A DNA stretch of 37,920 bases from a virus, in UHGV virus genome UHGV-0126763. The stretch is one strand, 5' to 3'. The translations under genes were made by a program, and so were the position numbers. Position 1 is the stretch's first letter; each line of letters opens with the position of its first letter. A model generated the notes under the pieces. That model was not told the DNA's origin, did no database searches, and saw only the letters and a program-made list of their open reading frames with translations. Of the stretch, positions 1,297-37,920 are shown one piece after another.

Positions 1297-1611
1297 TTAA
1301 TTTATTCGTATGCCTGTTCTCTCTTCATCAAGTTTTTTTAGCTTGTATCGCATAGCTCTTACTGAATAAATTGAGCGGCAGGTTGCAATTGCTATTTCTT
1401 CTGCGGAGAACTTACCGAAAAGTGATACTTCGGCTCTTGTCCAGCGTCTTCCACGAAGTCGGCTAACAATGTCAGCGCCAATCCTTGTTGCTTTCGCCAT
1501 TACTGCTTTTTCAGTCCTTTCCAGTTTTTCAGCGATAACTTCAACTGGCATTGTCGCCGCTACTTCGCGCAAGAAATCGACTTCCCATTTCTCCCATGGA
1601 GTCTTTTTCAT
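1297..1611 (-). CDS. Hypothetical phage early protein, possibly DNA-binding
   Basis: 104-aa ORF with two internal repeats of a W-x-E/DFLRE-like motif; position in early-left operon. Confidence 0.55.
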
Positions 1612-1622
1612 AGTCGATACCG

Positions 1623-2105
1623 TTATTTGATAAGAAGTGAAGGTTTCCCAACCTTGAGTTGAGCGCCTGGGATATTTATTCCTGCTTTTAGTTGGTGTTT
1701 GATTGCCAGTTTGTCGGCTTTAATTGTCGTTTCAAACTCAACGTATTCAGGAGGAAGGGCGCTTGAGTCGATGATTTCTACAGTTTCTGACGGTTTGCGG
1801 ATTGTTACCTGGTGAATACCTGCTCGAATCTTTTTCTTGCCAACCATTTCAAGCGATGACGCTATATATGATTTGATGCTGTCAATCTTATTTTGAATTA
1901 CTGCGGCTCGCTCATTTAGTGACTTTGCCTCTTCCTTGAGGCGTTCAGCATAACCAGATTCATTTTTAATAATGGCGAGAAGTTGCTCTATTTTATCGGT
2001 AAATTCTCCTTCCATGCCTTCTATTGTGTCAGCAATCATCTCTGTCTCTAAATCTGAATCCATCAATTTTGCGTATTCATTGGCTATTTCATATAGTTTG
2101 CTCAC
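1623..2105 (-). CDS. Gp157-family phage protein
   Basis: ORF-track frame 1623..2111 begins with TTG; GTG at 2105 has GGAGG 6 nt upstream; coiled-coil-like acidic N-terminus recalled as siphovirus Gp157 family; directly downstream of recT. Confidence 0.55.
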   Translation of the reverse strand: MSKLYEIANEYAKLMDSDLETEMIADTIEGMEGEFTDKIEQLLAIIKNESGYAERLKEEAKSLNERAAVIQNKIDSIKSYIASSLEMVGKKKIRAGIHQVTIRKPSETVEIIDSSALPPEYVEFETTIKADKLAIKHQLKAGINIPGAQLKVGKPSLLIK

Positions 2106-3000
2106 TGGCAACCTCCAGTTTCGCTTTGCATTCTATGTAAATGGCTTGTACGTTCTGCTGCAATTTCATTCCAGATGTCAGGCGATATGCTTCTGCAAAA
2201 TATCGCTTCAAATCATCCATCTTTTCTGCCTGAGCCATTTCATCACAAAGAAGTTGTGCTTTATCCGTTATTTCCTGCTGGCGTTTCCGTTCATCTTCGC
2301 GGATATCTTCCTCTGATTTGTACGGCATAACTGGTTCAGTCCATACACCTTCTTCTTCGTTTAGTACGTGAATAGCACTATCAAGACGTGATGCCTTAGG
2401 CCAATACTTGCTTGCACGCTTTACGACCGTCTTTCGCGCCATCTCATTCCAGTGATTTACCCATGGCCCTTTATCGCTGAATGCCGCCTTGCTTGTTTTC
2501 CTTACAGCCTCAATTTCAGCCAGACTCATCTCTTCCGTTAGATAATCACCTGCTGGCGTCTTAACTGTGCAGTAAACGCCAACGATATCACCACGATCAC
2601 CGAAGGCGTTGTATTTATGGGTTGGTGCTTTATCAAGCCCGTTTGACTCATAGGTATCGTTAGCATGAACAAGTTTTGCCTGACCCCATGAGATAACACC
2701 AGACTCCATTGCAATATGGAGCAATCCCATATAGCTGATATCAAGGCAAACCATGCCGTCGCGCGGAACCAGATAAGCCAGTTTGCTGGCCGGGTTTAAG
2801 GTGATGCCGATCGCCGCAACATTGATGATGGCGTTCTGTGCGCTGGTTGGATTTGCCAGTGCTGTTTTAGCCAGGTAATCATTTTTCTGGAAATACTGAA
2901 TTGCAAACTGGCTTTCCTTAGCCCATGTCACCGTCTGTTCAGTCAATGCTCCGCAGAATAACTGCTCCTGCTGTTTAACGAATTCAACGATATTGCTCAT
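2089..3000 (-). CDS. recT: RecT-family single-strand annealing recombinase
   Basis: 303 aa; GPWVNHWNEMARKTVVKRASKYWP segment matches the conserved RecT core as recalled from E. coli Rac RecT; ATG with GGAG RBS. Confidence 0.85.
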   Translation of the reverse strand: MSNIVEFVKQQEQLFCGALTEQTVTWAKESQFAIQYFQKNDYLAKTALANPTSAQNAIINVAAIGITLNPASKLAYLVPRDGMVCLDISYMGLLHIAMESGVISWGQAKLVHANDTYESNGLDKAPTHKYNAFGDRGDIVGVYCTVKTPAGDYLTEEMSLAEIEAVRKTSKAAFSDKGPWVNHWNEMARKTVVKRASKYWPKASRLDSAIHVLNEEEGVWTEPVMPYKSEEDIREDERKRQQEITDKAQLLCDEMAQAEKMDDLKRYFAEAYRLTSGMKLQQNVQAIYIECKAKLEVASEQTI

Positions 3001-3308
3001 GCAGCTTCTCCATAAATATGTCTGCGTTTGAATATTGCGAAGGCATATTCAGCCTTAACTCTTTCGGTTATTGCATCCCAGAACCATTCAGCGGCTTTTT
3101 CCTGATAGTCACAGTCATCATCTTCCAGCCAGTCGATAGCGTCCTTAGTGTGTTCATCTGGCTTATATGAGCGAAGCATTTCGCTTATTGGGTCGCAACG
3201 TTTGCAGAGGCGATCAACTTCACTGTTGATTCGTTCGTAATCATCATCGGTAAAACTTGCGATGATTTGCGATATTTCACGCTTATCATTCAGAGTCAGA
3301 ATCATCAT
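2997..3308 (-). CDS. Hypothetical phage early protein
   Basis: 103-aa acidic ORF, ATGATG start, stop overlaps recT start. Confidence 0.55.
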   Translation of the reverse strand: MMILTLNDKREISQIIASFTDDDYERINSEVDRLCKRCDPISEMLRSYKPDEHTKDAIDWLEDDDCDYQEKAAEWFWDAITERVKAEYAFAIFKRRHIYGEAA

Positions 3309-3393
3309 CTTTCTCCTGTTCTTTGTGCTGATTGAGCATTTCTTTCATCTGACGAATGAATTCTTCGTCTGACCAGTTATCTGTAAAACTCAT
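3286..3393 (-). CDS. Small hypothetical protein (35 aa), not in ORF track
   Basis: Hand translation MSFTDNWSDEEFIRQMKEMLNQHKEQEKDDDSDSE; stop overlaps ATGATG start of downstream gene; weak RBS. Confidence 0.3.
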   Translation of the reverse strand: MSFTDNWSDEEFIRQMKEMLNQHKEQEKDDDSDSE

Positions 3394-3624
3394 GGACGGC
3401 CTTGTTGTTTCAAAATATCCCAAAGCTTTTCGAGCAAACTTTTCATTCTTGGTTGTTTAAAGTCTGCTCCGGTTAAAATGTTTTTTCGTGAATGCTGCAC
3501 CGATAAAATCGGGTTGAAAGGGCGAACCGATGCCGCCCCTGCAATAGCGAACTGTTGCATAGGATGCTCCTTCTGTTTGATTGCATAACGAAAACGCCTC
3601 GAATGAAGCGTTATTGGTATGCAT

Positions 3625-3648
3625 ATAAAAAGGCCCTCACATTGGAGG
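3625..3648 (-). terminator. Intrinsic terminator-like hairpin in early-left operon (tL-like)
   Basis: Minus strand reads GCCCTC-caatgt-GAGGGCC followed by TTTTTATATGC. Confidence 0.45.
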
Positions 3649-3778
3649 GCAAAGAAGATTTCCAATAATCAGAACAAGTCGGCTCCTGTTTAGTTACGAG
3701 CGACATTGCTCCGTGTATTCACTCGTTGGAATGAATACACAGTGCAGTGTTTATTCTGTTGCTTATTCCAAAGCAAAT

Positions 3779-4021
3779 TTAACCATCAACAAACTCTTCT
3801 GGTAATTTATCAACCAGTTGATGACTTATTATCAGCCATTTGCCATCCTTCGTTTCGTATGCATATTTCTGGTCTTTTATCATCATGTGTTCGGCTACTG
3901 CCCTAACTGCCTGATCGGTGACATCTTCTCTCTTTCCTACCCACATTCCTTTTTCAGTGTTTAATGTTCCTTGAAAAATACGACCGCTTAATGGGCTTGC
4001 GCCCATAGTTTTTACTCTCAT
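3779..4021 (-). CDS. Hypothetical phage early protein
   Basis: 80-aa ORF immediately downstream of N; ATG with GAGAG RBS. Confidence 0.6.
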   Translation of the reverse strand: MRVKTMGASPLSGRIFQGTLNTEKGMWVGKREDVTDQAVRAVAEHMMIKDQKYAYETKDGKWLIISHQLVDKLPEEFVDG

Positions 4022-5076: not shown

Positions 5077-5763
5077 TCAAACTTTTGGCAGATCGTCCTG
5101 GTCTACGTACCTGGTGTGTTTCACAATAGCTGAAACAAAATGCATTTTATCAACTTCTTCAACAGGAAGAGTGATTGGGCGGTGATCACTGTTTATGCTA
5201 CTAAACTGATAATCACCGTCTCTTGTTTTGTTCATGATCTTTATCATGTTGTGACCGTCTTTGGTCCTTACAAAGACTTCATCACCTGGATGTACTGGCG
5301 TATTTGGTTCAATAACAACATATTCTCCTGACTGAATCCTTGGCCACATGCTGTCACCCTTAACCTTCAGACCGTAAGCATCTTTATCGCCGCTGTAGAT
5401 GCTTAACCAACCGGATCTGAATTCAATCATATCCACTGAGCCATCAACTCCCAAAACGGCTTCACCAATTACCGGAACAAAACCCGCACGAACGTTACCC
5501 GCAAACTCAAGATGGTCCGTAGCTCCAGCTTTACCATCTGCAAGCATGTCCATCCATCCGCGTGGGAGATTAAAAGATTTTTCAATTAGTTCCATCATAT
5601 CGTCAGCAATGCGTTTTTTTCCGCTTTTTCCTTCCGGATACAGCATTCTGGAAACGTATGATGGTTCCCTTTCTATTCGACGAGCCAACTCTGAGGCCTT
5701 TCCATTACAGAATCGGTCTCTTATCTCTATCAGCCTTAGTCGTCTTTGTTCGTATTTATCCAT
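5077..5763 (-). CDS. cI: CI-like prophage repressor (HTH N-terminal domain, S24 LexA-like peptidase C-terminal domain)
   Basis: 228 aa; C-terminal GDSMWP serine motif and later Lys typical of S24 autoproteases; divergent from cro-like gene across the operator cluster; no SD before ATG, consistent with a leaderless PRM-type transcript. Confidence 0.85.
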   Translation of the reverse strand: MDKYEQRRLRLIEIRDRFCNGKASELARRIEREPSYVSRMLYPEGKSGKKRIADDMMELIEKSFNLPRGWMDMLADGKAGATDHLEFAGNVRAGFVPVIGEAVLGVDGSVDMIEFRSGWLSIYSGDKDAYGLKVKGDSMWPRIQSGEYVVIEPNTPVHPGDEVFVRTKDGHNMIKIMNKTRDGDYQFSSINSDHRPITLPVEEVDKMHFVSAIVKHTRYVDQDDLPKV

Positions 5764-5769
5764 GATTTA

Positions 5770-5797
5770 ATTCTATCTTTGATTACCTGCCGGTAAA
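5770..5797 (-). promoter_or_regulatory. Candidate PRM-like promoter for the repressor
   Basis: Minus strand TAGAAT -10 about 6 nt upstream of the cI ATG, weak TTTACC -35 overlapping the leftmost OR site; inferred by analogy to lambda PRM. Confidence 0.35.
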
Positions 5798-5835
5798 TAA
5801 CCTATGGGTATTGATTTGCTTTTTACCTACAGGTA
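5784..5835. promoter_or_regulatory. OR operator cluster (three sites)
   Basis: TACCTGCCGGTA 5784-5795, weaker AACCTATGGGTA 5799-5810, TACCTACAGGTA 5824-5835; tripartite arrangement between divergent cI and cro. Confidence 0.65.
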
Positions 5836-5839
5836 AACT
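5811..5839 (+). promoter_or_regulatory. Candidate PR promoter
   Basis: TTGATT -35 at 5811-5816, 17-nt spacer, TAAACT -10 at 5834-5839 overlapping the rightmost operator; 32 nt upstream of cro start. Confidence 0.45.
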
Positions 5840-5871
5840 CATCTTATTCAACAACGGGAAGGAGATAGCAA

Positions 5872-6102
5872 ATGGAAGAACTCCGCTTGTATCTGAACTC
5901 CCTTTCACTGGAAGAGCAGAGAGAATTTGCCACCAAGTGCGGAACTTCTATCGGCTATTTGAGGAAAGCACTTAGCCGTAATCATGAATTGGGCGCAGCA
6001 CTTTGTGTTCTGATTGAGAAGTTCAGCAATGGTGAAGTGACTCGCAAAGACCTTCATCCGGTTGATTGGGAAAGCATCTGGCCTGAATTAATGGCCGCTT
6101 AA
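5872..6102 (+). CDS. cro: Cro-like HTH regulator
   Basis: 76 aa, first gene rightward of OR, GGAG RBS 7 nt upstream. Confidence 0.65.
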   Translation: MEELRLYLNSLSLEEQREFATKCGTSIGYLRKALSRNHELGAALCVLIEKFSNGEVTRKDLHPVDWESIWPELMAA

Positions 6103-11346: not shown

Positions 11347-11966
11347 GACTCGAAAGTGTAGCTAAATTTCATTCGCCAAAAAGCCCGATGATGAGCGACT
11401 CACCACGGGCTACGGCTTCTGACTCTCTTTCCGGTACTGATGTGATGGCTGCTATGGGGATGGCGCAATCACAAGCCGGATTCGGAATGGCTGCATTCTG
11501 CGGTAAGCATGAACTCAGCCAGAACGACAAACAAAAGGCTATCAACTATCTGATGCAATTTGCACACAAGGTATCGGGGAAATACCGTGGTGTGGCAAAG
11601 CTCGAAGGAAATACTAAGGCAAAGGTACTGCAAGTGCTCGCAACATTCGCTTATGCGGATTATTGCCGTAGTGCCGCGACGCCGGGCGCAAGATGCAGAG
11701 ATTGTCACGGTACAGGCCGTGCGGTTGATATAGCAAAAACAGAGCAGTGGGGGAGAGTTGTTGAGAAAGAATGCGGAAGATGCAAAGGTGTCGGCTATTC
11801 AAGAATGCCAGCAAGCGCCGCATATCGCGCTGTGACGATGCTAATCCCAAACCTTACCCAACCCACCTGGTCACGCACTGTTAAGCCGCTGTATGACGCT
11901 CTGGTGGTGCAATGCCACAAAGAAGAGTCAATCGCAGACAACATTTTGAATGCGGTCACACGTTAG
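11343..11966 (+). CDS. Q: Late gene antiterminator Q (lambda-type)
   Basis: 207 aa; MRLESVAKFHSPKSPMMSDSPRATASD and CRDCHGTGRAVD zinc motif match lambda Q as recalled; followed by PR'-like promoter. Confidence 0.9.
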   Translation: MRLESVAKFHSPKSPMMSDSPRATASDSLSGTDVMAAMGMAQSQAGFGMAAFCGKHELSQNDKQKAINYLMQFAHKVSGKYRGVAKLEGNTKAKVLQVLATFAYADYCRSAATPGARCRDCHGTGRAVDIAKTEQWGRVVEKECGRCKGVGYSRMPASAAYRAVTMLIPNLTQPTWSRTVKPLYDALVVQCHKEESIADNILNAVTR

Positions 11967-12008
11967 CAGCATGATTGCCACGGATGGCAACATATTAACG
12001 GCATGATA

Positions 12009-12050
12009 TTGACTTTTTGAATAAAGTTGGGTAAATTTGACTCAACGATG
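12009..12050 (+). promoter_or_regulatory. PR' late promoter with qut region
   Basis: TTGACT -35 at 12009-12014, 17-nt spacer, TAAATT -10 at 12032-12037, then TTGACTCAACGATGG as in lambda PR'/qut as recalled. Confidence 0.6.
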
Positions 12051-12072
12051 GATAAATGCACTCGTTAAATAA

Positions 12073-12108
12073 AGCCCTGAGTTAATAGCTCGGGGCTTTT
12101 TGCGTTTT
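12073..12108 (+). terminator. Intrinsic terminator downstream of PR' (tR'-like, non-lambda sequence)
   Basis: AGCCCTGAG-ttaatag-CTCGGGGCT stem (one G-U) followed by TTTTTGCGTTTT. Confidence 0.55.
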
Positions 12109-12399
12109 AAGCACGGCCTTTCTGAAAGCACATCAAACCAAATACCAGACAGACAAAAATAATCACCTTATCCGCTGTGGCTACGGTGCGGTGTGCTTTG
12201 CATAAAAGAAAACCAGCGCAATGGCTGGCTTCGTGAAAGCGGGTGGCAAGAAGTTGCGCTAACAACCTCATGCCGTTTTGCCCGTGCATATCGGTCACGA
12301 ACAAATCTGATTACTAAACACAGTAGCCTGGATTTGTTCTATCAGTAATCGACCTTATTCCTAATTAAATAGAGCAAATCCCCTTATTGGGGGTAAGAC

Positions 12400-12723
12400 A
12401 TGAAGATGCCAGAAAAACATGACCTGTTAGCCGCCATTCTCGCGGCAAAGGAACAAGGCATCGGGGCAATCCTTGCGTTTGCAATGGCGTACCTTCGCGG
12501 CAGATATAATGGCGGTGCGTTTACAAAAACAGTAATCGACGCAACGATGTGCGCCATTATCGCCTGGTTCATTCGTGACCTTCTCGACTTCGCCGGACTA
12601 AGTAGCAATCTCGCTTATATAACGAGCGTGTTCATCGGCTACATCGGTACTGACTCGATTGGTTCGCTTATCAAACGCTTCGCTGCTAAAAAAGCCGGAG
12701 TAGAAGATGGTGGAAATCAATAA
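12400..12723 (+). CDS. S: Holin S (class I, dual-start MKM)
   Basis: 107 aa; [22 protein letters not shown] matches lambda S as recalled; upstream leader also lambda-like. Confidence 0.9.
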
Positions 12724-13183
12724 TCAACGTAAGGCGTTCCTCGATATGCTGGCGTGGTCAGAGGGAACTGATAACGGACGGCAGAAAACCAGAAATCATG
12801 GTTATGACGTCATTGTAGGAGGAGAGCTATTCACTGATTACTCCGATCACCCTCGCAAACTTGTCACGCTAAACCCCAAACTCAAATCAACAGCAGCCGG
12901 ACGTTACCAGCTTCTTTCCCGTTGGTGGGATGCCTATCGTAAGCAGCTTGGCCTGAAAGACTTCTCTCCGAAAAGCCAGGACGCTGTTGCGCTGCAGCAG
13001 ATTAAGGAGCGTGGCGCTTTACCGATGATTGATCGCGGTGATATCCGTCAGGCTATCGACCGTTGCAGCAATATCTGGGCTTCACTGCCGGGTGCTGGTT
13101 ATGGTCAGTTCGAGCATAAGGCAGACAGCCTGATTGCAAAATTCAAAGAAGCAGGCGGAACGGTCAGAGAGATTGAGGTATGA
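12707..13183 (+). CDS. R: Endolysin R (lambda-type lytic transglycosylase)
   Basis: 158 aa; [26 protein letters not shown] matches lambda R as recalled; overlaps S stop. Confidence 0.9.
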
Positions 13184-13617
13184 GTAGAGTAACCGCGATT
13201 ATCTCCGCTCTGGTTATCTGCATCATCGTCTGCCTGTCATGGGCTGTTAATCATTACCGTGATAATGCAATCGCCTACAAAGAGCAGCGCGATAAAGCCA
13301 CATCCATCATCGCTGATATGCAGAAGCGGCAACATGATGTAGCAGAACTCGACGCCAGATACACAAAGGAGCTTGCTGATGCTAACGCGACTATCGAAAG
13401 TCTCCGTGCTGATGTTTCTGCTGGTCGTAAGCGCCTGCAAGTCGCCGCCACCTGTACAAAGTCAACGACCGGAGCCAGCAGCATGGGCGATGGAGAAAGC
13501 CCAAGACTTACAGCAGATGCTGAACTCAATTATTACCGTCTCCGAAGTGGAATCGACAAGATAACCGCGCAGGTTAACTATCTGCAGGAATACATCAGGA
13601 CGCAATGCCTGAAATGA
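13180..13617 (+). CDS. Rz: Spanin inner-membrane subunit Rz
   Basis: 145 aa; N-terminal [25 protein letters not shown] as in lambda Rz; central and C-terminal parts diverge. Confidence 0.8.
13373..13564 (+). CDS. Rz1: Spanin outer-membrane lipoprotein Rz1 (embedded in Rz, +1 frame)
   Basis: Signal peptide with lipobox-like VVSAC then proline-rich [13 protein letters not shown]; wholly inside Rz in another frame. Confidence 0.65.
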
Positions 13618-23653: not shown

Positions 23654-24814
23654 ATGGCACAGGGCTTACCTGTATCCAACGTTGTAAACGTTGATGTGAT
23701 CATCTCGCCGAAAGCGGCTACTGGTCGTAACTTCGGCGCGCTGCTGATCCTCGGCTCTTCCACTGTCATTCCGGTGCAGGAACGCATTCGCCTTTATGCG
23801 TCCGTTGAGGACATTGGCGAGGACTTCGGAGTCGACAGCCCGGAATATGAAGCGGCGCAGGTTTTCTTCAGCCAGTCACCGAAGCCGACACAGGTTTATG
23901 TTGGTCGCTGGGCGAAGACGCTGAGTTCTTCCGAGAGTGGAGATACTGAAACCATCGTGCAAGCTGTTAATGCCTGCCTGCAATATACCAACTGGTATGG
24001 GCTGGTTGTCGCTGATGATGTTGTCGCTGGTGGCGATGTGCTTGATGCTGATGACGTGATTGAGGTCGCCAAACTTATTGAAGCGTCCAGCCTTAGCCGT
24101 ATCTTTGGTGTGACCTCTGCCGACGCCGAGATTATCAGCACGACTTCGACGACCGATGTTGCGTCGAAATTAAAGGCTGGCAAGTATGCCCGTACCTTTA
24201 TTCAGTATTCCACCAGCAGCCCTTACGCAGCGGTTTCTGCTTTCGGTCGTGCGTTTACTGTCAATTTCAACGGCAGCAATACCACCATTACCCTGAAGTT
24301 CAAACAGGAACCAAGCGTAACCTACGAAACGTTGACGGTAGGCCAGGCGGCTGCGGTGGATACGAAGAATGCGAACGTGTTCGTGTACTACGCCAACGAC
24401 ACGGCGATCCTGCAACAGGGTGTCATGGCGAACGGTGACTTCTTCGACGAGCGCCACGGGCTCGACTGGTTGCAGAACTACGTTCAGACCAACCTCTATA
24501 ACCTGCTTTACACCAGCACCACCAAAATTCCGCAGACTGATGCCGGTGTGACCCGTCTGCTTTCCAACGTTGAACAGTCCATGGATCAGTCCGTCACGAA
24601 CGGTCTGGTAGCGGCTGGCGTGTGGAATGGTGGACCTATCGGACAGCTGAATTCCGGCGATACGCTGACCAAAGGTTATTACGTGTATGCGCAACCTCTT
24701 TCAGAACAGGCGCAGGCCGACCGAGAAGCTCGCAAAGCACCGTTAATTCAGGTGGCCTGTAAGCTGGCTGGCGCAGTTCATTATGCCGATGTGCAGATCA
24801 ACGTGGTTCGCTAA
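23654..24814 (+). CDS. Putative tail sheath protein
   Basis: 386 aa, first large gene of tail module, followed by tube-like and chaperone genes; assignment by position and size. Confidence 0.5.
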
Positions 24815-24824
24815 GGAGCGATAA

Positions 24825-25265
24825 ATGTCAACTTATTCTTTTCTCGATGTAACCGCGTCGCTCATCGGGCCGACCGGCGTTATCGATCTTGGTCAGGGTT
24901 CTGCGAACTCTGAGGAAGGTATCACCCAGACCATGGGCGGCAACAAGAACACCATGACCATCGGTGCCGATGGCGAAGTGATGCACAGCCTGCACGCCGA
25001 TAAGTCAGGCACCATTACGGTGACGCTGCTGAAAACCTCCCCGGTGAACAAGAAGCTGTCTCTGGCGTATAACGCGCAAAGCCAGTCCTCTGCCACCTGG
25101 GGCAATAACGTGATCGTCATTCGCAACACGGCATCGGGTGATATTTCTACTGCGCGTTCGTGCGCATTCCAGAAACAGCCTGATTTCAATAACGCCAAAG
25201 AGGGCGGGACTGTTTCCTGGGTGTTCGACTGCGGCAAGATTGACCAGCTGCTCGGGGAGTTTTAA
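24825..25265 (+). CDS. Putative tail tube protein
   Basis: 146 aa, AAGGAG RBS, between sheath-like gene and chaperone. Confidence 0.5.
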   Translation: MSTYSFLDVTASLIGPTGVIDLGQGSANSEEGITQTMGGNKNTMTIGADGEVMHSLHADKSGTITVTLLKTSPVNKKLSLAYNAQSQSSATWGNNVIVIRNTASGDISTARSCAFQKQPDFNNAKEGGTVSWVFDCGKIDQLLGEF

Positions 25266-25268
25266 CGC

Positions 25269-25694
25269 ATGGAATTCGAAATTAAAGGCGTGAAATATCG
25301 CACCGCAAAGCTCAGCGTTTTCGAACAGCTGAAGGTGTCCCGCAAGCTGTTGCCGGTGCTGGCCGGGATGGTTTCTGACTTTCGGAGCGTTCAGGAGAAG
25401 ATCAGCAGCAAAGACACCGAAGGCGCGATGGCTACCATCCTGCCAAAGATTGCCAATGCTGTGTCCGATCTGAGCGATGGCGACGTGGACGCTATCCTGT
25501 TCCCCTGCCTTTCCGTTGTTTCACGCGAGCACATGAAAGGCTGGGTGCCGGTCTGCCAGCATGGCGAAATGGCGTTTGACGATATCGACCTGCTGACCAT
25601 GCTGCAACTGGTGGCGCGGGTGGTCGCCGACTCGCTGGGAAATTTTTTGCAAGGACTCCCTACCAGCGAGACGCCCACCCCGCCAGCGGAATAA
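25269..25694 (+). CDS. Tail assembly chaperone (G-like)
   Basis: 141-aa ORF directly upstream of tape measure gene; contains slippery AAATTTTTTG near its 3' end. Confidence 0.6.
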   Translation: MEFEIKGVKYRTAKLSVFEQLKVSRKLLPVLAGMVSDFRSVQEKISSKDTEGAMATILPKIANAVSDLSDGDVDAILFPCLSVVSREHMKGWVPVCQHGEMAFDDIDLLTMLQLVARVVADSLGNFLQGLPTSETPTPPAE

Positions 25695-25882
25695 CCTTCA
25701 ACAGCCTGCCGGGCGGTGAAGATTTTATTCTTCGTCCGGCGCTTGCCTTCCAGATTGACCAGAAAGACCTTAACAGCGGTGCGGTAGACCTCTGCCGCAT
25801 CGCGCTTCTCAATGACTACCTCGACATGCGCGAGGATAACGACGCCCGGGTAGATAAATGGAGAGCGGCCAATGAGCGGTAA
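25269..25882 (+). CDS. Tail assembly chaperone -1 frameshift product (GT-like)
   Basis: -1 frame is open from the slippery site at 25640-25649 to TAA at 25880-25882; extension translates as protein-like ...TFNSLPGGEDFILRPALAFQIDQKDLNSGAVDLCRIALLNDYLDMREDNDARVDKWRAANER. Confidence 0.5.
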
Positions 25883-27953
25883 CGCAGATACGATTAAAGA
25901 TTTCCTTGTTTCGCTGGGATTCGATATCGATCAGGCTGGCGCTAATAAGTTTGAAGCCGTGCTGAAAGGCGTTACCGCGAACGTTCTGAAGGTCGGCGCG
26001 GTGGTGGAAGGCGCAGCGCTGAGCATTGTCGGATTTACCACCCAGATCGCGAATGGTCTGGATAAAATTTACTGGGCATCCCAACGGACGGGGGCCAGCG
26101 TCCAGGGCATCAAAGCGCTGGGCTATGCCGCATCGCAAACCGGTGCCAGCGCTGAGTCGGCCATGTCCTCCCTCGAAGGGCTGGCTGGCTTCATGCGTAG
26201 CAATCCGGGGGCGGAAGGGTTCCTGAACCGTCTTGGTGTCCAGACCCGCGATGCCAGCGGAAAGATGCGTGATACTGCTGCCATCTTTACTGGCGTTGGG
26301 CAAAAGCTCAACAACATGCCGTATTACCGCGCGAAGCAATACGCGCAGATGCTCGGTATCGATGAAAACACGCTGATGGCGATGCGGCGCGGCATGAATG
26401 GCTTTACCGCCGATTACCAGTCTATGCTGCAAAAGACGGGGTTCAACGCTGATAAGGCAGCCGTTCAGTCCAACAAATTCATGACGTCCATGCGCGGGCT
26501 TACGTCGCTGTTCGGCATTGTGCGGGACAAGATCGGCTCAAATCTCGCTGGTGGTCTGGCTGGTTCGCTGGACAGCCTGCGGCGGCGCATCCTCGACAAT
26601 TTCCCGAAGATTGAAGAGACGCTGACCAAAGTTATTAAGGGCGTGATCTGGCTTGCAAACGCCTTCACACGAATGGCGTGGCGGCTTATACAGGGCGCTG
26701 GCTCTGTCATTGACTGGTGGAAGCGTCTTGATGATGGCAGTAAAAATCTGCTGAAAATATTCGGTGCTCTACTGGTCGCATGGCGTCTGCTTAATTCTGC
26801 GTTCCTGAAATCCCCGATTGGAATTATCACCACACTGATTCTGGCGATCGGATTGCTGTACGACGATTACCAGACGTGGAAAGAGGGCGGTAAAAGCCTG
26901 ATTGACTGGTCCAAATGGCAGCCAGAAATTGAGCAGGCAAAGAAGGTGTTCAAGTGGCTGCGCGATAAGTTTCTGGAGCTCAAGGACAACCTCGGCGGCT
27001 GGAAAAATACGCTTACCATCCTGTTTGGCTTTCTGGCCGGTGCGAAGCTGTTCTCCATGCTCACTGGTATCGGGCGACTTGTCGCCGGATTTATGGGGCT
27101 CGGTAAGGCAATTGGCGGCTCTATTGGTGGGCTGGGTAAGCTGGCGCAGGGGATCGCTCAGTTGGCAATCAAGAATCCCTGGTTGCTTATGTTCATTCCT
27201 GCCAACAATACGCCGACCACCAGTGAAGAAATGGCGTCGATTGGCGGTATAGGCAGCAATATCGTACCTGAAAGGCAGCAGGCATATGAGGCGCTGAGAA
27301 AGGAAAATCCCGGCAAAGACTTTTTCACTGATGAGCAAATCCAGCGAAAAATTCAGGAGATGGGACTGGAGCCGGAGCAGCGAGCGCAGTCGGTTAAACG
27401 CCCACAAGCCACAGCGCAGGGCAAGGTTTTGCTCGACTGGATGGGGCCATTGTTCAATAAGCTGGAGTCTCTTTATCAGCTGCCTGCTGGCCTGTTGAAA
27501 AGCGTGGCGATCACCGAGTCGGGTGGTAACCAGTTCGCTGTGTCCGGCGCAGGCGCGAAAGGACTGTTTCAGTTTATGGATGGCACGGCGCGCGACATGG
27601 GCCTGCGTGGGAATGATGTATTCGACCCGGAAAAGTCAGCTCAGGCAGCCGCTAAGTACCTCAGCCAGCTGTTGCGGCAGAACGGCGGAGACCTTAGCAA
27701 AGCACTGGCATCATATAACTGGGGGATCGGGAATGTTAAGCGTTATGGAATGGGGCTAATGCCGCAGGAAACGCGCAACTACATTCCGAAAGTAATGAGC
27801 AATATGCCCACCAGCGCCCCGGTGATTCAGCAGGAAACGAATATTAACATCCACGGTGTTTCCGATCCGCGTGAAGCTGCCCGTTTGACTGTTGACCGTC
27901 AAAAGGGCGTGAATTCACAGTTAACCCAGCAACTCCCCGCAGGACCGAGATAA
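25872..27953 (+). CDS. Tail tape measure protein with C-terminal SLT lytic transglycosylase domain
   Basis: 693 aa; central hydrophobic/Gly-rich segments; C-terminal ESGGNQFAVSGAGAKGLFQF...YNWGIGNV matches soluble lytic transglycosylase motifs. Confidence 0.8.
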   Translation: MSGNADTIKDFLVSLGFDIDQAGANKFEAVLKGVTANVLKVGAVVEGAALSIVGFTTQIANGLDKIYWASQRTGASVQGIKALGYAASQTGASAESAMSSLEGLAGFMRSNPGAEGFLNRLGVQTRDASGKMRDTAAIFTGVGQKLNNMPYYRAKQYAQMLGIDENTLMAMRRGMNGFTADYQSMLQKTGFNADKAAVQSNKFMTSMRGLTSLFGIVRDKIGSNLAGGLAGSLDSLRRRILDNFPKIEETLTKVIKGVIWLANAFTRMAWRLIQGAGSVIDWWKRLDDGSKNLLKIFGALLVAWRLLNSAFLKSPIGIITTLILAIGLLYDDYQTWKEGGKSLIDWSKWQPEIEQAKKVFKWLRDKFLELKDNLGGWKNTLTILFGFLAGAKLFSMLTGIGRLVAGFMGLGKAIGGSIGGLGKLAQGIAQLAIKNPWLLMFIPANNTPTTSEEMASIGGIGSNIVPERQQAYEALRKENPGKDFFTDEQIQRKIQEMGLEPEQRAQSVKRPQATAQGKVLLDWMGPLFNKLESLYQLPAGLLKSVAITESGGNQFAVSGAGAKGLFQFMDGTARDMGLRGNDVFDPEKSAQAAAKYLSQLLRQNGGDLSKALASYNWGIGNVKRYGMGLMPQETRNYIPKVMSNMPTSAPVIQQETNINIHGVSDPREAARLTVDRQKGVNSQLTQQLPAGPR

Positions 27954-28555
27954 TGGATATTTTATCAGCGATTTTTCGCCAGCAATCCCGGCGAATTGGC
28001 CTGCTGATCCCCAGCGTGGTCGTCTCCGAAAAGCATTCTGATGCGCTCGAAATTACTGAGCATCCGGTGGAGAAGCCAACAACGAATAGCGCGTCGGGTT
28101 TCATCGCCGATCATGCGTATAAGCGTCCCAGCGAAGTCACAATGGAATGCGGCTTCGCTGGTGGCGGTTCGTTGCTGGACTTCATCGATACATCTTCAAT
28201 CGGCCTCAGCGCCGGACTGAGCCCGAAAGAGACTTATCAGCAATTGCTGGATCTCCAGTCCTCTCGGGTGCCGTTCGATGTGGTGACTGGCAAGCGGGTG
28301 TACAGCAATATGCTGGTGCGCGCCATCGAGGTGACGACCGATAAAACCAGCGAGAACGTGCTGAACTGCACGCTTACCCTGCGTGAAGTCATCATAACGC
28401 AGACAAAAAATGTCACCGTTGCAGATAAATCAGATATGCAGGATGGCGTCAGCACATCGGCGGTGCAGAATTCCGGGATGAAATCCACTACACCGCCAAA
28501 CGAATCCTTGCTGAGCCAGCTGGGCGGAAGCGTTACATCAGCATTCGGGGGATGA
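27953..28555 (+). CDS. Tail/baseplate-associated protein
   Basis: 200-aa ORF coupled (TAATG) to tape measure stop. Confidence 0.5.
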   Translation: MDILSAIFRQQSRRIGLLIPSVVVSEKHSDALEITEHPVEKPTTNSASGFIADHAYKRPSEVTMECGFAGGGSLLDFIDTSSIGLSAGLSPKETYQQLLDLQSSRVPFDVVTGKRVYSNMLVRAIEVTTDKTSENVLNCTLTLREVIITQTKNVTVADKSDMQDGVSTSAVQNSGMKSTTPPNESLLSQLGGSVTSAFGG

Positions 28556-28556
28556 T

Positions 28557-28862
28557 ATGCAGTTTAACGAAATACCGCTTTCTCCTGACAATCAGCAGTT
28601 CCGCGTTTTGCTGGGCAATACCACGTATACACTCAGGATCATCTGGCGTGATGCGGCTGGCTGGATTATGGACGTGATGGATAGCGGCGGTGCTGCGCTT
28701 CTTTCTGGCGTACCTCTCCTGACCGGCGTGAACCTATTACGACAATATCCACAGCTTGGCATTGATGGCGCGCTGGTGGTGGCGACCGATAAGGGCGCAC
28801 CAGACGAGCCCACCAAAACCAACCTCGGCACATACAGCCACCTCATTTTCGTACAGGAGTAG
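28557..28862 (+). CDS. Hypothetical tail protein
   Basis: 101-aa ORF in tail operon. Confidence 0.5.
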   Translation: MQFNEIPLSPDNQQFRVLLGNTTYTLRIIWRDAAGWIMDVMDSGGAALLSGVPLLTGVNLLRQYPQLGIDGALVVATDKGAPDEPTKTNLGTYSHLIFVQE

Positions 28863-28864
28863 AA

Positions 28865-29929
28865 ATGTCTCTTAACTGGATGCGCCATTTTGAGCTGCAA
28901 CTGTTGGACCAGAACGGGCAGGGCGTTTCCCTGTCTGACTTTAAGGTCACGTTCCAGATCGAGTGGGCAGACACACGCTGGCCACGCGTGGCGAACGTGA
29001 AAATTTACAACCTTTCGACCGATACCACGAACAAGATACTTGGGCAGGAGTTTGCCAAAATTCGCATCATTGCCGGGTATGACGGTATAGTGCCGGATGT
29101 TGATGCGAGCCAGGTTGGTGTGTCCCGGGAGATTTCACCAGACCAGATAGGGCAGGTGAACGGTCAGAACTACGGCCTGATTTTTGACGGTGATATTCGC
29201 TTCACCGTCACCGGGAAGGACAACATTACGGATTCCTGGGTGTTGATTCAGGCCATTGGTGATCACGAAGCGTTCCTCTATGCGACCACCATCACCACGC
29301 TTGCCGCTGGCTATACCGTTGCGGATCTGCACCGGGCGACGATGCAGGATTTCAACGCGTTCGGCGTGACACAGGGCATTACCGGCGATTTTCCTGATAC
29401 CGTGTTTCCTCGTGGCCGCGCGATTTACTCATCCAGCCGCAACGTGATGGATAATATTGCTGCGCAGTGCAAAGCGACATGGCAACTGGTGGATGGTCAG
29501 GTCCAGATGGTGCCGGAGGATAAATATATTCACGAAGCCATTGTGTTGAATGCCAATACTGGCCTGATCGGTATGCCGCAACAGACAATGGGCGGCGGCG
29601 TAAACGTGCGGTGCCTGATAAACCCAAACATCCGCATTAATGGTCTTATCCAGCTCGATCAGGCTTCGGTGTACCGCGCCGCGCTCGGCAATAGCGAAAT
29701 CGCACAGTCGCCCGGTCGTATCACTGAAACGGAAGAGAACGGCAACCGCGCACTGACCGGCACAACGTCACAGGCTGCCAGCATTGCGACAGATGGCGTT
29801 TATATCGTCAAAGCTATCGACTATACTGGCGACACCAGAGGTCAGGCGTGGTACATGGATTTGATGTGTTTTGCGCGTGGCAGTCGTGATTTAGTTAATG
29901 CTGGTGCTATGCAAAAAACAAACTACTGA
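28865..29929 (+). CDS. Putative baseplate hub / late-control D-like tail protein
   Basis: 354 aa, GGAG RBS, position between tape measure and spike gene. Confidence 0.5.
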   Translation: MSLNWMRHFELQLLDQNGQGVSLSDFKVTFQIEWADTRWPRVANVKIYNLSTDTTNKILGQEFAKIRIIAGYDGIVPDVDASQVGVSREISPDQIGQVNGQNYGLIFDGDIRFTVTGKDNITDSWVLIQAIGDHEAFLYATTITTLAAGYTVADLHRATMQDFNAFGVTQGITGDFPDTVFPRGRAIYSSSRNVMDNIAAQCKATWQLVDGQVQMVPEDKYIHEAIVLNANTGLIGMPQQTMGGGVNVRCLINPNIRINGLIQLDQASVYRAALGNSEIAQSPGRITETEENGNRALTGTTSQAASIATDGVYIVKAIDYTGDTRGQAWYMDLMCFARGSRDLVNAGAMQKTNY

Positions 29930-29939
29930 GGTACGGGAC

Positions 29940-30275
29940 GTGAAACTCGTAATTTTTATCATTGCAGCATTATTTTCTTTCCAAGCTATTGCTGATTCTC
30001 AGTGTGGTGATTTCAAAATCCATTGGGCTGATGATGGTTTCGCTCGCGTAAACGGAGCTAAACCTGAATCGCAAAAAGTGACATTTCTTAAAAATGACGG
30101 TGATTATAACAACGTCAAAATTGAATGGCGCTTAGCGACCAATCAACCAGGGCGATGGGTAGGAATGGAGTTTATTGGCCGTAATGGTAAAGCAATCCTG
30201 AATGCTCAGTGGCTGCAAGCCAGCATGGATTCGCCGCGTCAGTATGCAACATACGACTGCCGAAAAGTAAAATAG
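29940..30275 (+). CDS. Secreted small protein (Sec signal peptide), moron in tail module
   Basis: GTG at 29940 with GAGG 8 nt upstream gives MKLVIFIIAALFSFQAIA followed by DSQCGDF (AXA cleavage site); two Cys in mature part; AT-rich; ORF-track ATG at 29898 lacks the signal peptide context. Confidence 0.55.
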   Translation: MKLVIFIIAALFSFQAIADSQCGDFKIHWADDGFARVNGAKPESQKVTFLKNDGDYNNVKIEWRLATNQPGRWVGMEFIGRNGKAILNAQWLQASMDSPRQYATYDCRKVK

Positions 30276-30293
30276 CCCGCCAGATAGGCGGGC
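30275..30293. terminator. Hairpin between convergent moron genes
   Basis: GCCCGCC-agata-GGCGGGC; on the minus strand it is followed by T-rich CTATTTTACTTTT. Confidence 0.45.
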
Positions 30294-30298
30294 ATGCG

Positions 30299-30589
30299 TC
30301 AAAAATATTGAGCTTTAATTATAATAAACACAATAATTACGAACAGGATGTTTCTAATTATTTTTTGCTTATGAGTAAGTTGTTTTTTTTCTGTCGATTT
30401 CCCGGGAGAGTAAAGGTTAGTGGTATGCGACAGCCCCGTGCCGGGAAGGCCATTTGTCATCTTTACGCCTTTTTTTCCGATGTTAATGGTGGAACCTTTA
30501 CCACCAATTGAAGTGCTTACTCCGCTTTTACTAATGTTGATCGCGAGTCCGGGCGCAATCCGGATTCTTTTACGAAATCTAAATCCCAT
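30299..30589 (-). CDS. DUF4236-like protein with C-terminal membrane anchor, opposite-strand moron
   Basis: 96 aa; AGGAG RBS 6 nt upstream of ATG; N-terminal MGFRFRKRIRIAPG...SKSGVSTSIGGKG...GLPGTGLS resembles DUF4236 from memory; C-terminal hydrophobic ILFVIIVFIIIKAQYF. Confidence 0.65.
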   Translation of the reverse strand: MGFRFRKRIRIAPGLAINISKSGVSTSIGGKGSTINIGKKGVKMTNGLPGTGLSHTTNLYSPGKSTEKKQLTHKQKIIRNILFVIIVFIIIKAQYF

Positions 30590-30811: not shown

Positions 30812-31552
30812 ATGCCAATTCCAACTCAATCACAGATCGGCGGTGAGCAGCAGACCGCGCAGGCCATTGTCGATTCGGTGTCTACCCAGATGCGCGTAGC
30901 GATGCCCGGCATCATTCAGTCGTTCGATCCTGACACTGTTACCTGCACAGTAGAGGTAGCGCTTCGCGGTATTGTTGGCGATGGCTCCACCGAATTAAAA
31001 CCGCTGGTGGATGTGCCGGTTATCTTCCCGCGCGGCGGCGGTTGCACGCTGACCTTTCCGGTAAAAGAAGGCGACGAGTGCCTGCTGATCTTTGCCGACC
31101 GTTGCATCGATTTCTGGTGGCAGAGCGGCGGCGTTCAGGAGACCGTCGACCCGCGCCAGCATGACTTATCTGATGCGTTCGCCATCGTTGGCCCGCAGTC
31201 GCAAGCGCAGAAAATCAGCGGTATCAGTACCAGCGCCGCGCAGCTGCGAACCGATGATGGCTCGGCGTTCGTAGAGGTCGCAGCAGGGCATAACATCACC
31301 GTTAAAACGCCGGGCAAGCTTACGGCTACGGCTGAGGGTGGAACGACAATCACATCCCCGACTATCACGCTGAACGGCAACGTAACGATTAATGGCAATC
31401 TGTCTCAGGGAATGGGAGAAAGTGGTGGTACTGCGACGATGCTTGGGCCGGTTACGGTAACGAATGATGTGACAGCTTCAGGTATAAGTGTCGCCACGCA
31501 TAAACATGGCGGAGTTCAGGCAGGCGGGGGAACTACTGGAGGGCCGCAATAA
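30812..31552 (+). CDS. Baseplate spike / assembly protein V-like
   Basis: 246 aa; N-terminal OB-fold-like region then Gly/Thr-rich beta-helix-like C-terminus typical of gpV/Mu gp45-type spikes. Confidence 0.65.
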   Translation: MPIPTQSQIGGEQQTAQAIVDSVSTQMRVAMPGIIQSFDPDTVTCTVEVALRGIVGDGSTELKPLVDVPVIFPRGGGCTLTFPVKEGDECLLIFADRCIDFWWQSGGVQETVDPRQHDLSDAFAIVGPQSQAQKISGISTSAAQLRTDDGSAFVEVAAGHNITVKTPGKLTATAEGGTTITSPTITLNGNVTINGNLSQGMGESGGTATMLGPVTVTNDVTASGISVATHKHGGVQAGGGTTGGPQ

Positions 31553-35156: not shown

Positions 35157-36200
35157 TTACCCTGTAAATATGCTAAGGAATGTTTTTTGAAATGATTTGT
35201 TTTTATTTTTAGCGTTAATTAATGCTACTATACTAACTTGCAGTTTTACCATTATTGTAGCAAGTGTGTAAGTAAGTACATAACTTATTAAATAATGACT
35301 ACCTATTTTTTGACACATTATGATAAATGGGATGTGCCATAAATAAATCCAAATGGAGTTTTGGGATATGAATGAAACAACCTGCCATAATCTTAAAACC
35401 TTAAGTAAAAGAACAGCTTTGTTTGAGAGCAGATAGACTACGAATATCATAAAGGTTGCATAGGACATGTAATATATCCCAGGTGGGTACTTGTCTGACT
35501 GAGTTGGATTAAAGGCACCCAAGGTAATAATGTAATATGCAGTCATGGCAGAAAATAATAATCCACAGATAATGGTTGGGGGTAATAATTCTTTATGATC
35601 AGTGCTTGCAATTTTATAACCAATGATGAAAGCAAGTGTATAAGATATAGAGTTTGATATGTATGTCCCCAAAAGTATATAAATGCTCAACTTGTCAATT
35701 CCATTATACAATGGAATTAACTGGCTATTAATTAATAAAAATGACGCGGATATTGTTAATATCGCTTTTAAATTAAGTGTGTATAGTTTTGGAGGAATGA
35801 AAGTGGCTATCACTGATATTATGAAAAAGAGTCTAATAACCCACACATAACCAAGCCCACTGGATAATGCGAATGATGTTATTATAATTGACTTATTGTA
35901 AGTAAAGTCTTTTATATTAAAAATAAACGAAATGATTTCATTTATTAAGAAAAATGCCGCGAAGAAAATCCAAGTTGGTAAAACTAAACGGCGAAATCGA
36001 GAATTAATATATTTTATTCTGTTGCTATGGCGATGTTCGGTTACACAAAAGGACATCCCCATAACCATAAACATTAAAGGAACATCAAAGTTTCGCAGTT
36101 GAGCTAGCCATAAAGGAGGCTGGACATGGGCTAGAATGATTAGAGAAAGCCCGAGAAATCTTAAAAAATCTATTTTATCAATACGCATGACTTCGTCCAT
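35157..36200 (-). CDS. Acyltransferase family 3 integral membrane protein (putative O-antigen acetyltransferase)
   Basis: 347 aa, about 10 predicted TM segments, N-terminal IDFLRFLGLSLIILAHV motif typical of acyltransferase-3 (OafA/Oac-like); strongly AT-rich; sits between tail fiber genes and integrase. Confidence 0.8.
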   Translation of the reverse strand: MDEVMRIDKIDFLRFLGLSLIILAHVQPPLWLAQLRNFDVPLMFMVMGMSFCVTEHRHSNRIKYINSRFRRLVLPTWIFFAAFFLINEIISFIFNIKDFTYNKSIIITSFALSSGLGYVWVIRLFFIISVIATFIPPKLYTLNLKAILTISASFLLINSQLIPLYNGIDKLSIYILLGTYISNSISYTLAFIIGYKIASTDHKELLPPTIICGLLFSAMTAYYIITLGAFNPTQSDKYPPGIYYMSYATFMIFVVYLLSNKAVLLLKVLRLWQVVSFISQNSIWIYLWHIPFIIMCQKIGSHYLISYVLTYTLATIMVKLQVSIVALINAKNKNKSFQKTFLSIFTG

Positions 36201-36676: not shown

Positions 36677-37834
36677 TCATGTGACGTTACCGTCTATCCA
36701 GTCCGCCCACCATTGCATCATTTCTCTGCGCTTATCGAGATACTGAGCATGATTGTAAATTCCACGCACAGATCCGCCGTTGGCATGTGCCAGTTGCACT
36801 TCAATGGCGTCGGCAGGCCATTCGTGCTCGTTCATAATCGTGCTGAATTCATGCCTGAATCCGTGACCGCTTTCCAGACCTTCATAGCCGATTTGTTTGA
36901 TCACAAGCAATACCGCGTTCTCGCAGATTGGCTTCTTCTTATCGTTGCGCCCGGCAAAAACAAACTCTGAGACTGGTTTAGTGATGGAGCTTAGCGTAGT
37001 GAGAAGCTCAACCACCTGGTCTGACATAGGAACAACATGAATTTTGCGTCCCTTCATCACATTGGCGTCGATGGTGATAATCCTGTTTTCAAAATCGACG
37101 TTCTTCCATAGCATGGAACGAAGCTCTTTTGTTCTGAGGGCTGTGTAGCGTAAAACTTTGGTCGCAATGAGCGATACGATACTTCCTGAAAATGTTGCAA
37201 GTGCTTTGTTGAATTCCGGGATCTGGTCTGCAGGAAGAAACGGGAAGTTCTTCTTGCGGTATCCCTTCATGGCGTCAGCAAGGTCAGGTGACGGGTTATA
37301 TTTAGCCCTTCCGGTGACAATAGCGTAACGGAAAACCTCGCCGCATCTTCTGCGTGCTTTGTTGGCTCGCTCCATTGCGCCGCGATCTTCAAATCTGCGG
37401 ATTACTTCCAGCAGTTTCATCGGCTCAATATCCTGAATTTCAAGGCCGCCGATGATAGGTAAAATGTCGTCATCAAACATCTTTGCAAGTTCATTTGCAT
37501 AGCCTACTGACCAGACTTGCTTCTTGTGCTCGTACCATTCCTTGTAAATGGCGCTAAAGGAATTGTTGTTAGACGAAGCCTTTTTCGCCTTTACCGGATC
37601 GATGCCAACCGAGATGTCTTTCCTCGCAGTCCATGCTTTATCCCTTGCCTCCTGCAAAGTCATAAGCGGATATTTTCCTACGGTCAGTATTTTTTCCTTA
37701 CCGTCAATCTTGTAGCGAAGCTGCCATACCTTTTTCCCGGATACAGGGACATAAAGGTACAGGCCATTACCATCGAGAAGGCGATATGGTTTTTCTTTCG
37801 GCTTTGCTGCTTCAATCTGCTTAACGGTGAGCAT
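36677..37834 (-). CDS. int: Tyrosine integrase (P4-like family)
   Basis: N-terminus MLTVKQIEAAKPKEKPYRLLDGNGLYLYV typical of this family; C-terminal catalytic region with RHEFST and HANGGSVRGIY; ORF-track start 37870 is an upstream GTG. Confidence 0.85.
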   Translation of the reverse strand: MLTVKQIEAAKPKEKPYRLLDGNGLYLYVPVSGKKVWQLRYKIDGKEKILTVGKYPLMTLQEARDKAWTARKDISVGIDPVKAKKASSNNNSFSAIYKEWYEHKKQVWSVGYANELAKMFDDDILPIIGGLEIQDIEPMKLLEVIRRFEDRGAMERANKARRRCGEVFRYAIVTGRAKYNPSPDLADAMKGYRKKNFPFLPADQIPEFNKALATFSGSIVSLIATKVLRYTALRTKELRSMLWKNVDFENRIITIDANVMKGRKIHVVPMSDQVVELLTTLSSITKPVSEFVFAGRNDKKKPICENAVLLVIKQIGYEGLESGHGFRHEFSTIMNEHEWPADAIEVQLAHANGGSVRGIYNHAQYLDKRREMMQWWADWIDGNVT

Positions 37835-37920
37835 GGGTAAAAATCCGGTGGGTAAAATTATTTTATCCACTTTTTACCCGTCATGGAGTGCGGCTGTCAA
37901 CGATCTGACGCGAACCATGA

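Follow-up and report, generated by a model that had tools for sequence, protein, structure and literature searches.

Peptidoglycan-cleaving tape measure proteins in other phages

Tape measure proteins are among the usual carriers of virion-associated lysins, which help in stationary or low-temperature conditions (2018 review, PMC6116005), and lysin domains are found in the tape measure proteins of enterococcal phages too (PMC10194240). Here, we describe a protein of this kind encoded by UHGV virus genome UHGV-0126763, a viral DNA of 37,920 nucleotides (nt) that is referred to as a whole as the window. The open reading frame (ORF) at nt 25872 to 27953 (plus strand) encodes a product of 693 amino acids (aa) that is predicted to be the tape measure protein of a contractile tail and that carries an embedded SLT (family-1 lytic transglycosylase) domain. 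The reading that we favor, at a probability of roughly 85%, is that of a modular tape measure protein (ruler, variable linker, SLT domain, and anchor) that doubles as an entry lysin; its location in the virion, its ejection, and its activity are taken by analogy from the systems described below. SLT domains in the tape measure proteins of Gram-negative myoviruses have already been documented, and a 100% identical protein is present in NCBI under the name "transglycosylase SLT domain-containing protein," which is also its RefSeq label, so that the presence of the domain is already known. The exchange of cassettes at the position of the domain and the length polymorphism of the linker ahead of it are modest additions to this knowledge.

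The best sequence match among solved structures was gp41 of the Pseudomonas myovirus Pa193 (PDB 9b45). The structural study of Pa193 identifies gp41 as the tape measure protein, in which residues 491 to 582 make up a putative transglycosylase domain and residues 840 to 858 form a trimeric helix bound at the tail tip; gp41 is proposed there to lie extended in the tail lumen and, once it has reached the periplasm, to refold so as to give both a channel and an enzyme that cleaves peptidoglycan (PMC11456595). Pa193 and E217 (Pbunavirus) resemble the window in the sheath, hub, and plug neighbors of the tape measure gene, which belong to related Pfam families (E217_gp31_N/DUF3383 and E217_GP41). However, the SLT domain of Pa193 gp41 is internal and followed by ~270 residues, whereas ~50 residues follow it in the window protein, and Pa193 is a virulent phage, whereas the window represents a temperate prophage of an enterobacterium, the early genes of which are lambdoid.

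In T7 gp16 (7eyb, 7k5c, and 6yt5), a family-1 SLT domain is likewise carried by an ejected virion protein and acts at entry; its E37 corresponds to E549 of the window protein, and the folds match. In gp16, however, which is a podoviral capsid core protein of 1318 aa, the domain is N-terminal and not part of a tail ruler. The benefit of T7 gp16 is seen chiefly on cells whose wall is tougher (PMC6116005). Phage TM4 (PMC1796659), T5 (Pb2), and the Staphylococcus phage phiIPLA35 also have a peptidoglycan-cleaving module inside the tape measure protein, and the TM4 motif promotes infection of stationary-phase cells (PMC1796659). These modules differ from that of the window, being an Rpf-like motif, a peptidase, or a muramidase in noncontractile tails, mostly of phages with Gram-positive or mycobacterial hosts.

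Closer relatives were found in Salmonella phage SEN34, Hafnia phage yong1, Yersinia phage YP3, and Klebsiella prophages, which encode orthologues (PHROG 2276) with 59% to 68% identity and share the gene order and the SLT cassette with the window; the central linker differs, the window allele being mosaic there. The SEN34 homologue is the closest annotated relative from a cultured phage and is annotated as a tail tape measure protein; a literature search on tape measure proteins of the SEN34 type gave nothing relevant. The GH23 catalytic fold and its motifs are also shared with the lytic transglycosylases MltD, Slt70/Slt, MltE, and MltF of Escherichia coli and Pseudomonas aeruginosa, but these are housekeeping periplasmic enzymes or lipoproteins with accessory domains of their own.

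SLT domain of the tape measure protein

On the basis of Pfam, model confidence, and Foldseek, the SLT domain was delimited to aa 515 to 644 (nt 27414 to 27803, plus strand). The Pfam profile SLT (PF01464), which the initial annotation had named as the check for this domain, matched aa 527 to 627 (nt 27450 to 27752) with an E value of 2.8e-25 and a score of 88.6 bits, the gathering cutoff being 21.3; a score this far over the cutoff excludes a chance match. The same annotation had described the domain as C-terminal, within nt 27400 to 27953, which correspond to aa 510 to 693 and the stop codon. The domain does lie near the C terminus (aa ~515 to 644), but it is not terminal, since aa ~649 to 693 form a separate conserved tail.

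The ES...GLFQF and YNWG-type motifs that had been noted were all located in the tape measure protein. Motif I is E549-S550 within AITESGGN (nt 27516 to 27521), motif II is GLFQF (aa 564 to 568; nt 27561 to 27575), and motif III is YNWG (aa 615 to 618, or SYNWG at 614 to 618; nt 27714 to 27725). Motif IV is represented by Y637 in ETRNYIPKV, which is near-invariant among the relatives in an 18-sequence alignment and aligns with ETQDYVPKL of MltD. In this family, motif II is defined as GLMQ-like, motif III as AYNxG, and motif IV by a conserved Tyr. The codon of the predicted catalytic glutamate, E549, occupies nt 27516 to 27518 (plus strand) and was assigned by alignment with E37 of T7 gp16: phmmer pairs T548-E549-S550 with T36-E37-S38 of gp16 (native numbering of 7eyb). 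E549 is kept in at least 90% of the relatives in the 18-sequence alignment.

An AlphaFold2 model of aa 495 to 693, built on 17 relatives, had a predicted local distance difference test (pLDDT) score of ≥90 over most of aa 515 to 644. When this model was compared with the PDB by Foldseek, the top 50 matches were all lytic transglycosylases, among them MltD (8rhe), T7 gp16 (7k5c; 7k5c_B), MltE, MltF, MltC, and Slt70 (1qte), and the model matched P. aeruginosa Slt (5ohu) with a root mean square deviation of 1.9 Å over 136 columns. This agrees with the lysozyme-like, all-alpha fold with a substrate groove that marks the family. Sequence identity to MltD, Slt, MltE, and the other structural matches was just 24% to 31%. 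With values this low, the idea that the domain was captured recently from a lytic transglycosylase of the host was rejected; they indicate an old phage lineage of the SLT domain. Taken from sequence and model, the evidence supports the prediction that the SLT domain is an intact, catalytically competent GH23 family-1 lytic transglycosylase. The initial annotation had spoken of a peptidoglycan hydrolase; strictly speaking, a lytic transglycosylase is not a hydrolase, as enzymes of this type cleave nonhydrolytically and yield 1,6-anhydroMurNAc products.

Interchangeable cassettes in the tape measure family

The family was surveyed with aa 1 to 500 only as the query, which kept the ranking independent of whether a protein carried SLT. 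The search covered 1.84 billion cluster representatives and gave 4408 matches at an E value of ≤0.001, the best 150 of which were classified with locally iterated hidden Markov models (HMMs). The conserved C-terminal ~45 residues were detected in 134 of the 150 representatives, and cassettes were counted among these 134. The most common one was PF18013, "phage tail lysozyme" (53/134), followed by a module with the pattern RNNNPGN...TWAP...HENGxNPY of the Enc34/PHA02564 type, here called the NNPGN module (27/134). SLT was a minority type (21/134), and nothing was recognized in the remaining 33 representatives. The median distance from the end of the module to the C terminus was 50 residues for SLT, 55.5 for NNPGN, and 82 for PF18013. 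Pfam confirmed PF18013 in 5 of the 10 proteins tried. A first phmmer count had found SLT in 20 of the 150 representatives; the suspicion that this count was an artefact was dismissed after the C termini had been read, most members carrying other modules.

The NNPGN module gave no match in Pfam, and its sole significant match in Foldseek was the Enc34 endolysin's catalytic domain (7q47). Muralytic activity has been shown experimentally for the PHA02564 family/Enc34-type domain, and the catalytic residues of Enc34 are E131, W79, and Y95 (PMC8943055). The invariant Glu, Trp, and Tyr of the NNPGN alignment look like these three residues, a presumed correspondence and not one read from an alignment. 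A relationship to the lysin P5 of cystovirus phi6, considered because stand-alone homologues of the module are named "structural protein P5," was rejected, as Foldseek returned no such match. One representative (P0248) seemed to carry both the SLT and the NNPGN cassettes, but the overlap proved to be spurious and came from linker sequence included in the HMM seed. Relatives with alternative cassettes include P0164, P0242, P0245, P0246, and P0250 (C-terminal ~180 aa), as well as P0269, P0276, P0288, P0300, and P0342.

SLT is thus, by sequence classification, one of at least three predicted wall-cutting cassettes that are interchangeable at a fixed position in this tape measure family, and the occurrence of three muralytic cassettes in one slot argues for selection on cell wall cleavage there. 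We consider it reasonably probable that the family has a dedicated exchange slot ~50 residues before a conserved anchor, in which three peptidoglycan glycosidase cassettes are swapped between homologues and nothing recognizable is present in a quarter of them, and that the linker ahead of it differs in length by as much as ~200 residues among phages of a single host species. Such a family would provide a natural experiment on the way in which a tail tube carries an enzyme of ~130 residues that refolds on exit, and also on whether tail length depends on all parts of a tape measure protein.

Tape measure identity and gene context

The initial annotation had called the 693-aa ORF the tape measure protein, and this is supported by gene order and by a full-length family match: PHROG 2276, "tail length tape measure protein," covers aa 1 to 692 with an E value of 5e-216. 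Support from curated profiles is mixed, however, as the Pfam tape measure model PhageMin_Tail scored below its cutoff and NCBIfam gave no tape measure match for the protein, its best match there being a flagellar assembly lytic transglycosylase with 59 bits against a cutoff of 234. Upstream are the genes for the tail sheath (23654 to 24814; DUF3383, PHROG 205), the tail tube (24825 to 25265; KPP10_Orf10), and a G-like tail assembly chaperone (25269 to 25694; Pfam Phage_TAC_15, E value of 4.4e-33), all on the plus strand. A pair of G and GT chaperones before the tape measure gene is the classic arrangement. Here, the −1 frame of the chaperone gene is open from nt 25580 to 25882, and its stop lies just within the start of the tape measure gene. 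The slippery site, with the heptamers A AAT TTT and T TTT TTG at nt 25640 to 25649, and the −1 frame extension together span nt 25640 to 25882 (plus strand), and the −1 frame stretch is carried as a separate small DUF6889 ORF in the annotation of relatives. A programmed −1 frameshift of the G/GT type probably produces a G-T-like fusion chaperone, the gene for which is broken in two by annotation pipelines.

The tape measure gene is followed directly by the genes for a Dit-like protein (27953 to 28555; Dit_like), a plug of the Pam3_gp18 type (28557 to 28862), and the baseplate hub (28865 to 29929; PHROG 196), all on the plus strand, and the gpV-like spike is encoded at nt 30812 to 31552. The interval from the chaperone to the baseplate genes holds no second ORF that could serve as a ruler. 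Together, these data support the assignment of nt 25872 to 27953 as the predicted tape measure gene of a contractile tail.

Two other ORFs lie between the hub and the spike genes, at nt 29898 to 30589, where the G+C content falls to 0.45: a 125-aa ORF (plus strand) without a family match, the N terminus of which reads as hydrophobic and signal-like, and a DUF4236 ORF (minus strand). They are probably morons within the baseplate module.

Mosaic structure of the tape measure gene

The conserved N-terminal tape measure region comprises aa 1 to ~370 (nt 25872 to 26981, plus strand) and is marked by dense invariant columns in the 18-sequence alignment. The protein begins with MSGNADTIKDFLVSLGFDIDQAG and has no hydrophobic peak before aa ~47; judged from its sequence and hydrophobicity, this N terminus does not read as a signal peptide. 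A conserved hydrophobic segment, SAFLKSPIGIITTLILAIGLLY, was identified at aa 309 to 330 (nt 26796 to 26861, plus strand; Kyte-Doolittle peak of 1.98) ahead of the invariant motif DxYxxWKEGG, and it is possibly membrane inserting.

The central region, aa ~370 to 505 (nt 26979 to 27386, plus strand), diverges from most relatives in the alignment. In the window allele it is glycine-rich and hydrophobic (…LFGFLAGAKLFSMLTGIGRLVAGFMGLGKAIGGSIGGLGKLAQGIAQLAI…) and unrelated to the amphipathic segment found in most relatives, which indicates intragenic mosaicism within the tape measure gene. Because the window allele is variant in this region, many E. coli copies align with it in two pieces that cover just 81%. 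The 765-aa E. coli alleles (e.g., locus L003, nt 1501 to 3798) have a 216-nt (72-codon) insertion relative to the 693-aa allele directly upstream of the SLT domain. The edges of this indel are formed by an imperfect direct repeat of ~32 nt encoding AQSVKRPQATA, which in the window lies at nt 27384 to 27415 (plus strand), where the blastn pieces overlap (query positions 1513 to 1544). Other relatives, of 884 to 887 aa, have insertions at the same spot, and the alleles as a whole span 671 to 887 aa beside near-identical tail genes. If the linker before the SLT domain counts as part of the ruler, the tails of phages with the 693-, 765-, and 884- to 887-aa alleles should differ by ~10 to 30 nm.

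The conserved C-terminal tail, aa 649 to 693 (IQQETNINIHGVSDPREAARLTVDRQKGVNSQLTQQL; nt 27816 to 27950, plus strand), is the region recognized by the local HMM in the 134 representatives. It is present whatever the cassette, and the model predicts a terminal helix at aa 666 to 686. By analogy with residues 840 to 858 of Pa193 gp41, this region may serve as a tail tip anchor.

Proposed role at entry and alternative explanations

If the protein behaves as its counterparts do, the G and GT chaperones would help to build it into the lumen of the tail tube, with the C-terminal helix held at the hub or tip. On sheath contraction, the spike would be lost and the tape measure protein would be expelled, so that it would reach the periplasm. 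Its SLT domain, with E549 as the acid catalyst, would then cleave the β-1,4 bonds between N-acetylmuramic acid (MurNAc) and N-acetylglucosamine (GlcNAc), making a local opening in the peptidoglycan through which the tube and the DNA conduit can pass, and the hydrophobic segments may help to form the conduit through the inner membrane. The SLT domain would thus act at entry, independently of the holin-dependent endolysin R at exit. As judged from T7 gp16 and TM4, cells that grow fast can probably be infected without it, and it would be useful where walls are thicker or more cross-linked. As in virion-associated lysins, the predicted muralytic domain is fused to a structural gene and stands apart from the endolysin of the lysis cassette.

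Several points weigh against this reading. Several folded domains of ~130 residues each would have to fit into the lumen of a tail tube, where they may need to be unfolded or stacked, as proposed for Pa193 (PMC11456595). The match to Pa193 gp41 lies almost wholly in the SLT region, the N-terminal stretch contributing 2.5 bits, and Pfam PhageMin_Tail matched the tape measure protein at aa 37 to 158 with 19.9 bits, under its cutoff of 33.2. In addition, 33 of the 134 representatives have no recognizable cassette, which indicates that the module is accessory and not essential for tail function. That these representatives function without it would also be in line with an SLT domain kept as a noncatalytic peptidoglycan-binding or structural module, for example, one by which the tail tip, or the protein once ejected, docks on the sacculus, as would the dispensability of virion lysins in laboratory conditions for T7, TM4, and phi11 (PMC6116005). 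We regard such a role as improbable, however, because the SLT-bearing relatives conserve all four motifs and the catalytic Glu, which are likewise intact in the window protein, and because the alternative cassettes in the slot are also of a catalytic type, the Glu, Trp, and Tyr of the NNPGN module being invariant.

It is more improbable still that the protein is a separate "lytic tail protein" of the tail lumen or baseplate and that tail length is set otherwise. The RefSeq name, which mentions the SLT domain only, the subthreshold PhageMin_Tail match, and the frequent annotation of Pbunavirus homologues as "lytic tail protein" fit this idea, and alleles of 671 to 887 aa with near-identical tail genes are awkward for a strict ruler. 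Against it stand the lack of any other candidate ORF between the chaperone and baseplate genes, the −1 frameshift chaperone directly upstream, the full-length match to PHROG 2276, and the annotation of the SEN34 homologue as a tape measure protein. We give almost no credence to an SLT domain that works from inside the cell, in assembly or as an auxiliary lysis factor, and not at entry. Lytic transglycosylases also serve in the assembly of envelope-spanning machines, but nothing specific was found to favor such a role here; the domain is embedded in a structural tail gene whose product does not begin with a recognizable signal peptide, and a complete holin/R/Rz cassette is located elsewhere. 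Reading the protein as a tape measure protein that doubles as an entry lysin would give this prophage its correct functional annotation while adding no new biology, and the cassette picture could guide the engineering of virion-associated lysins or experiments on the ejection and refolding of tape measure proteins.

Phage background and the separate endolysin

Of 5426 complete E. coli genomes, 41 carried the tape measure gene at ≥90% nucleotide identity, in every case on the chromosome; the best genomic match was a prophage of E. coli strain S1 adjoining dacD. The window is a contractile-tailed temperate phage or prophage of E. coli. It is lambdoid in its early and lysis regions, with nin genes, Q, a lambda family holin, and Rz. 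The lysis cassette (nt 12400 to 13617) comprises a lambda-type holin (12400 to 12723; Pfam), endolysin R (12707 to 13183), and Rz (13180 to 13617; Pfam), all on the plus strand. The endolysin ORF gave no Pfam match at an E value of ≤0.01, and a sequence search of the PDB identified it as lambda R, with 156 of 158 residues identical to lambda lysozyme (1am7). The initial annotation had held the SLT domain to be separate from endolysin R, and R indeed has a gene of its own. Lambda R itself is a lytic transglycosylase with a fold unrelated to SLT, and the phage therefore encodes two unrelated enzymes with the same predicted chemistry, R for exit and SLT apparently for entry.

Between the tail fiber assembly gene and the integrase gene (36677 to 37870, minus strand), we noted a gene for an Acyl_transf_3 membrane acyltransferase (35157 to 36200, minus strand) with a G+C content of 0.32; its position and type suggest a moron encoding an O-antigen acetyltransferase (lysogenic conversion). 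PADLOC identified no defense genes among four small or low-G+C ORFs near the tail genes, nor at nt 35157 to 36200. ARAGORN predicted no tRNA in the whole window, although the prophage of E. coli S1, which is near-identical, carries genes for tRNA-Asn and tRNA-Thr in the interval from Q to the holin gene (L001, nt 5758 to 5913, versus nt 11966 to 12400 of the window).

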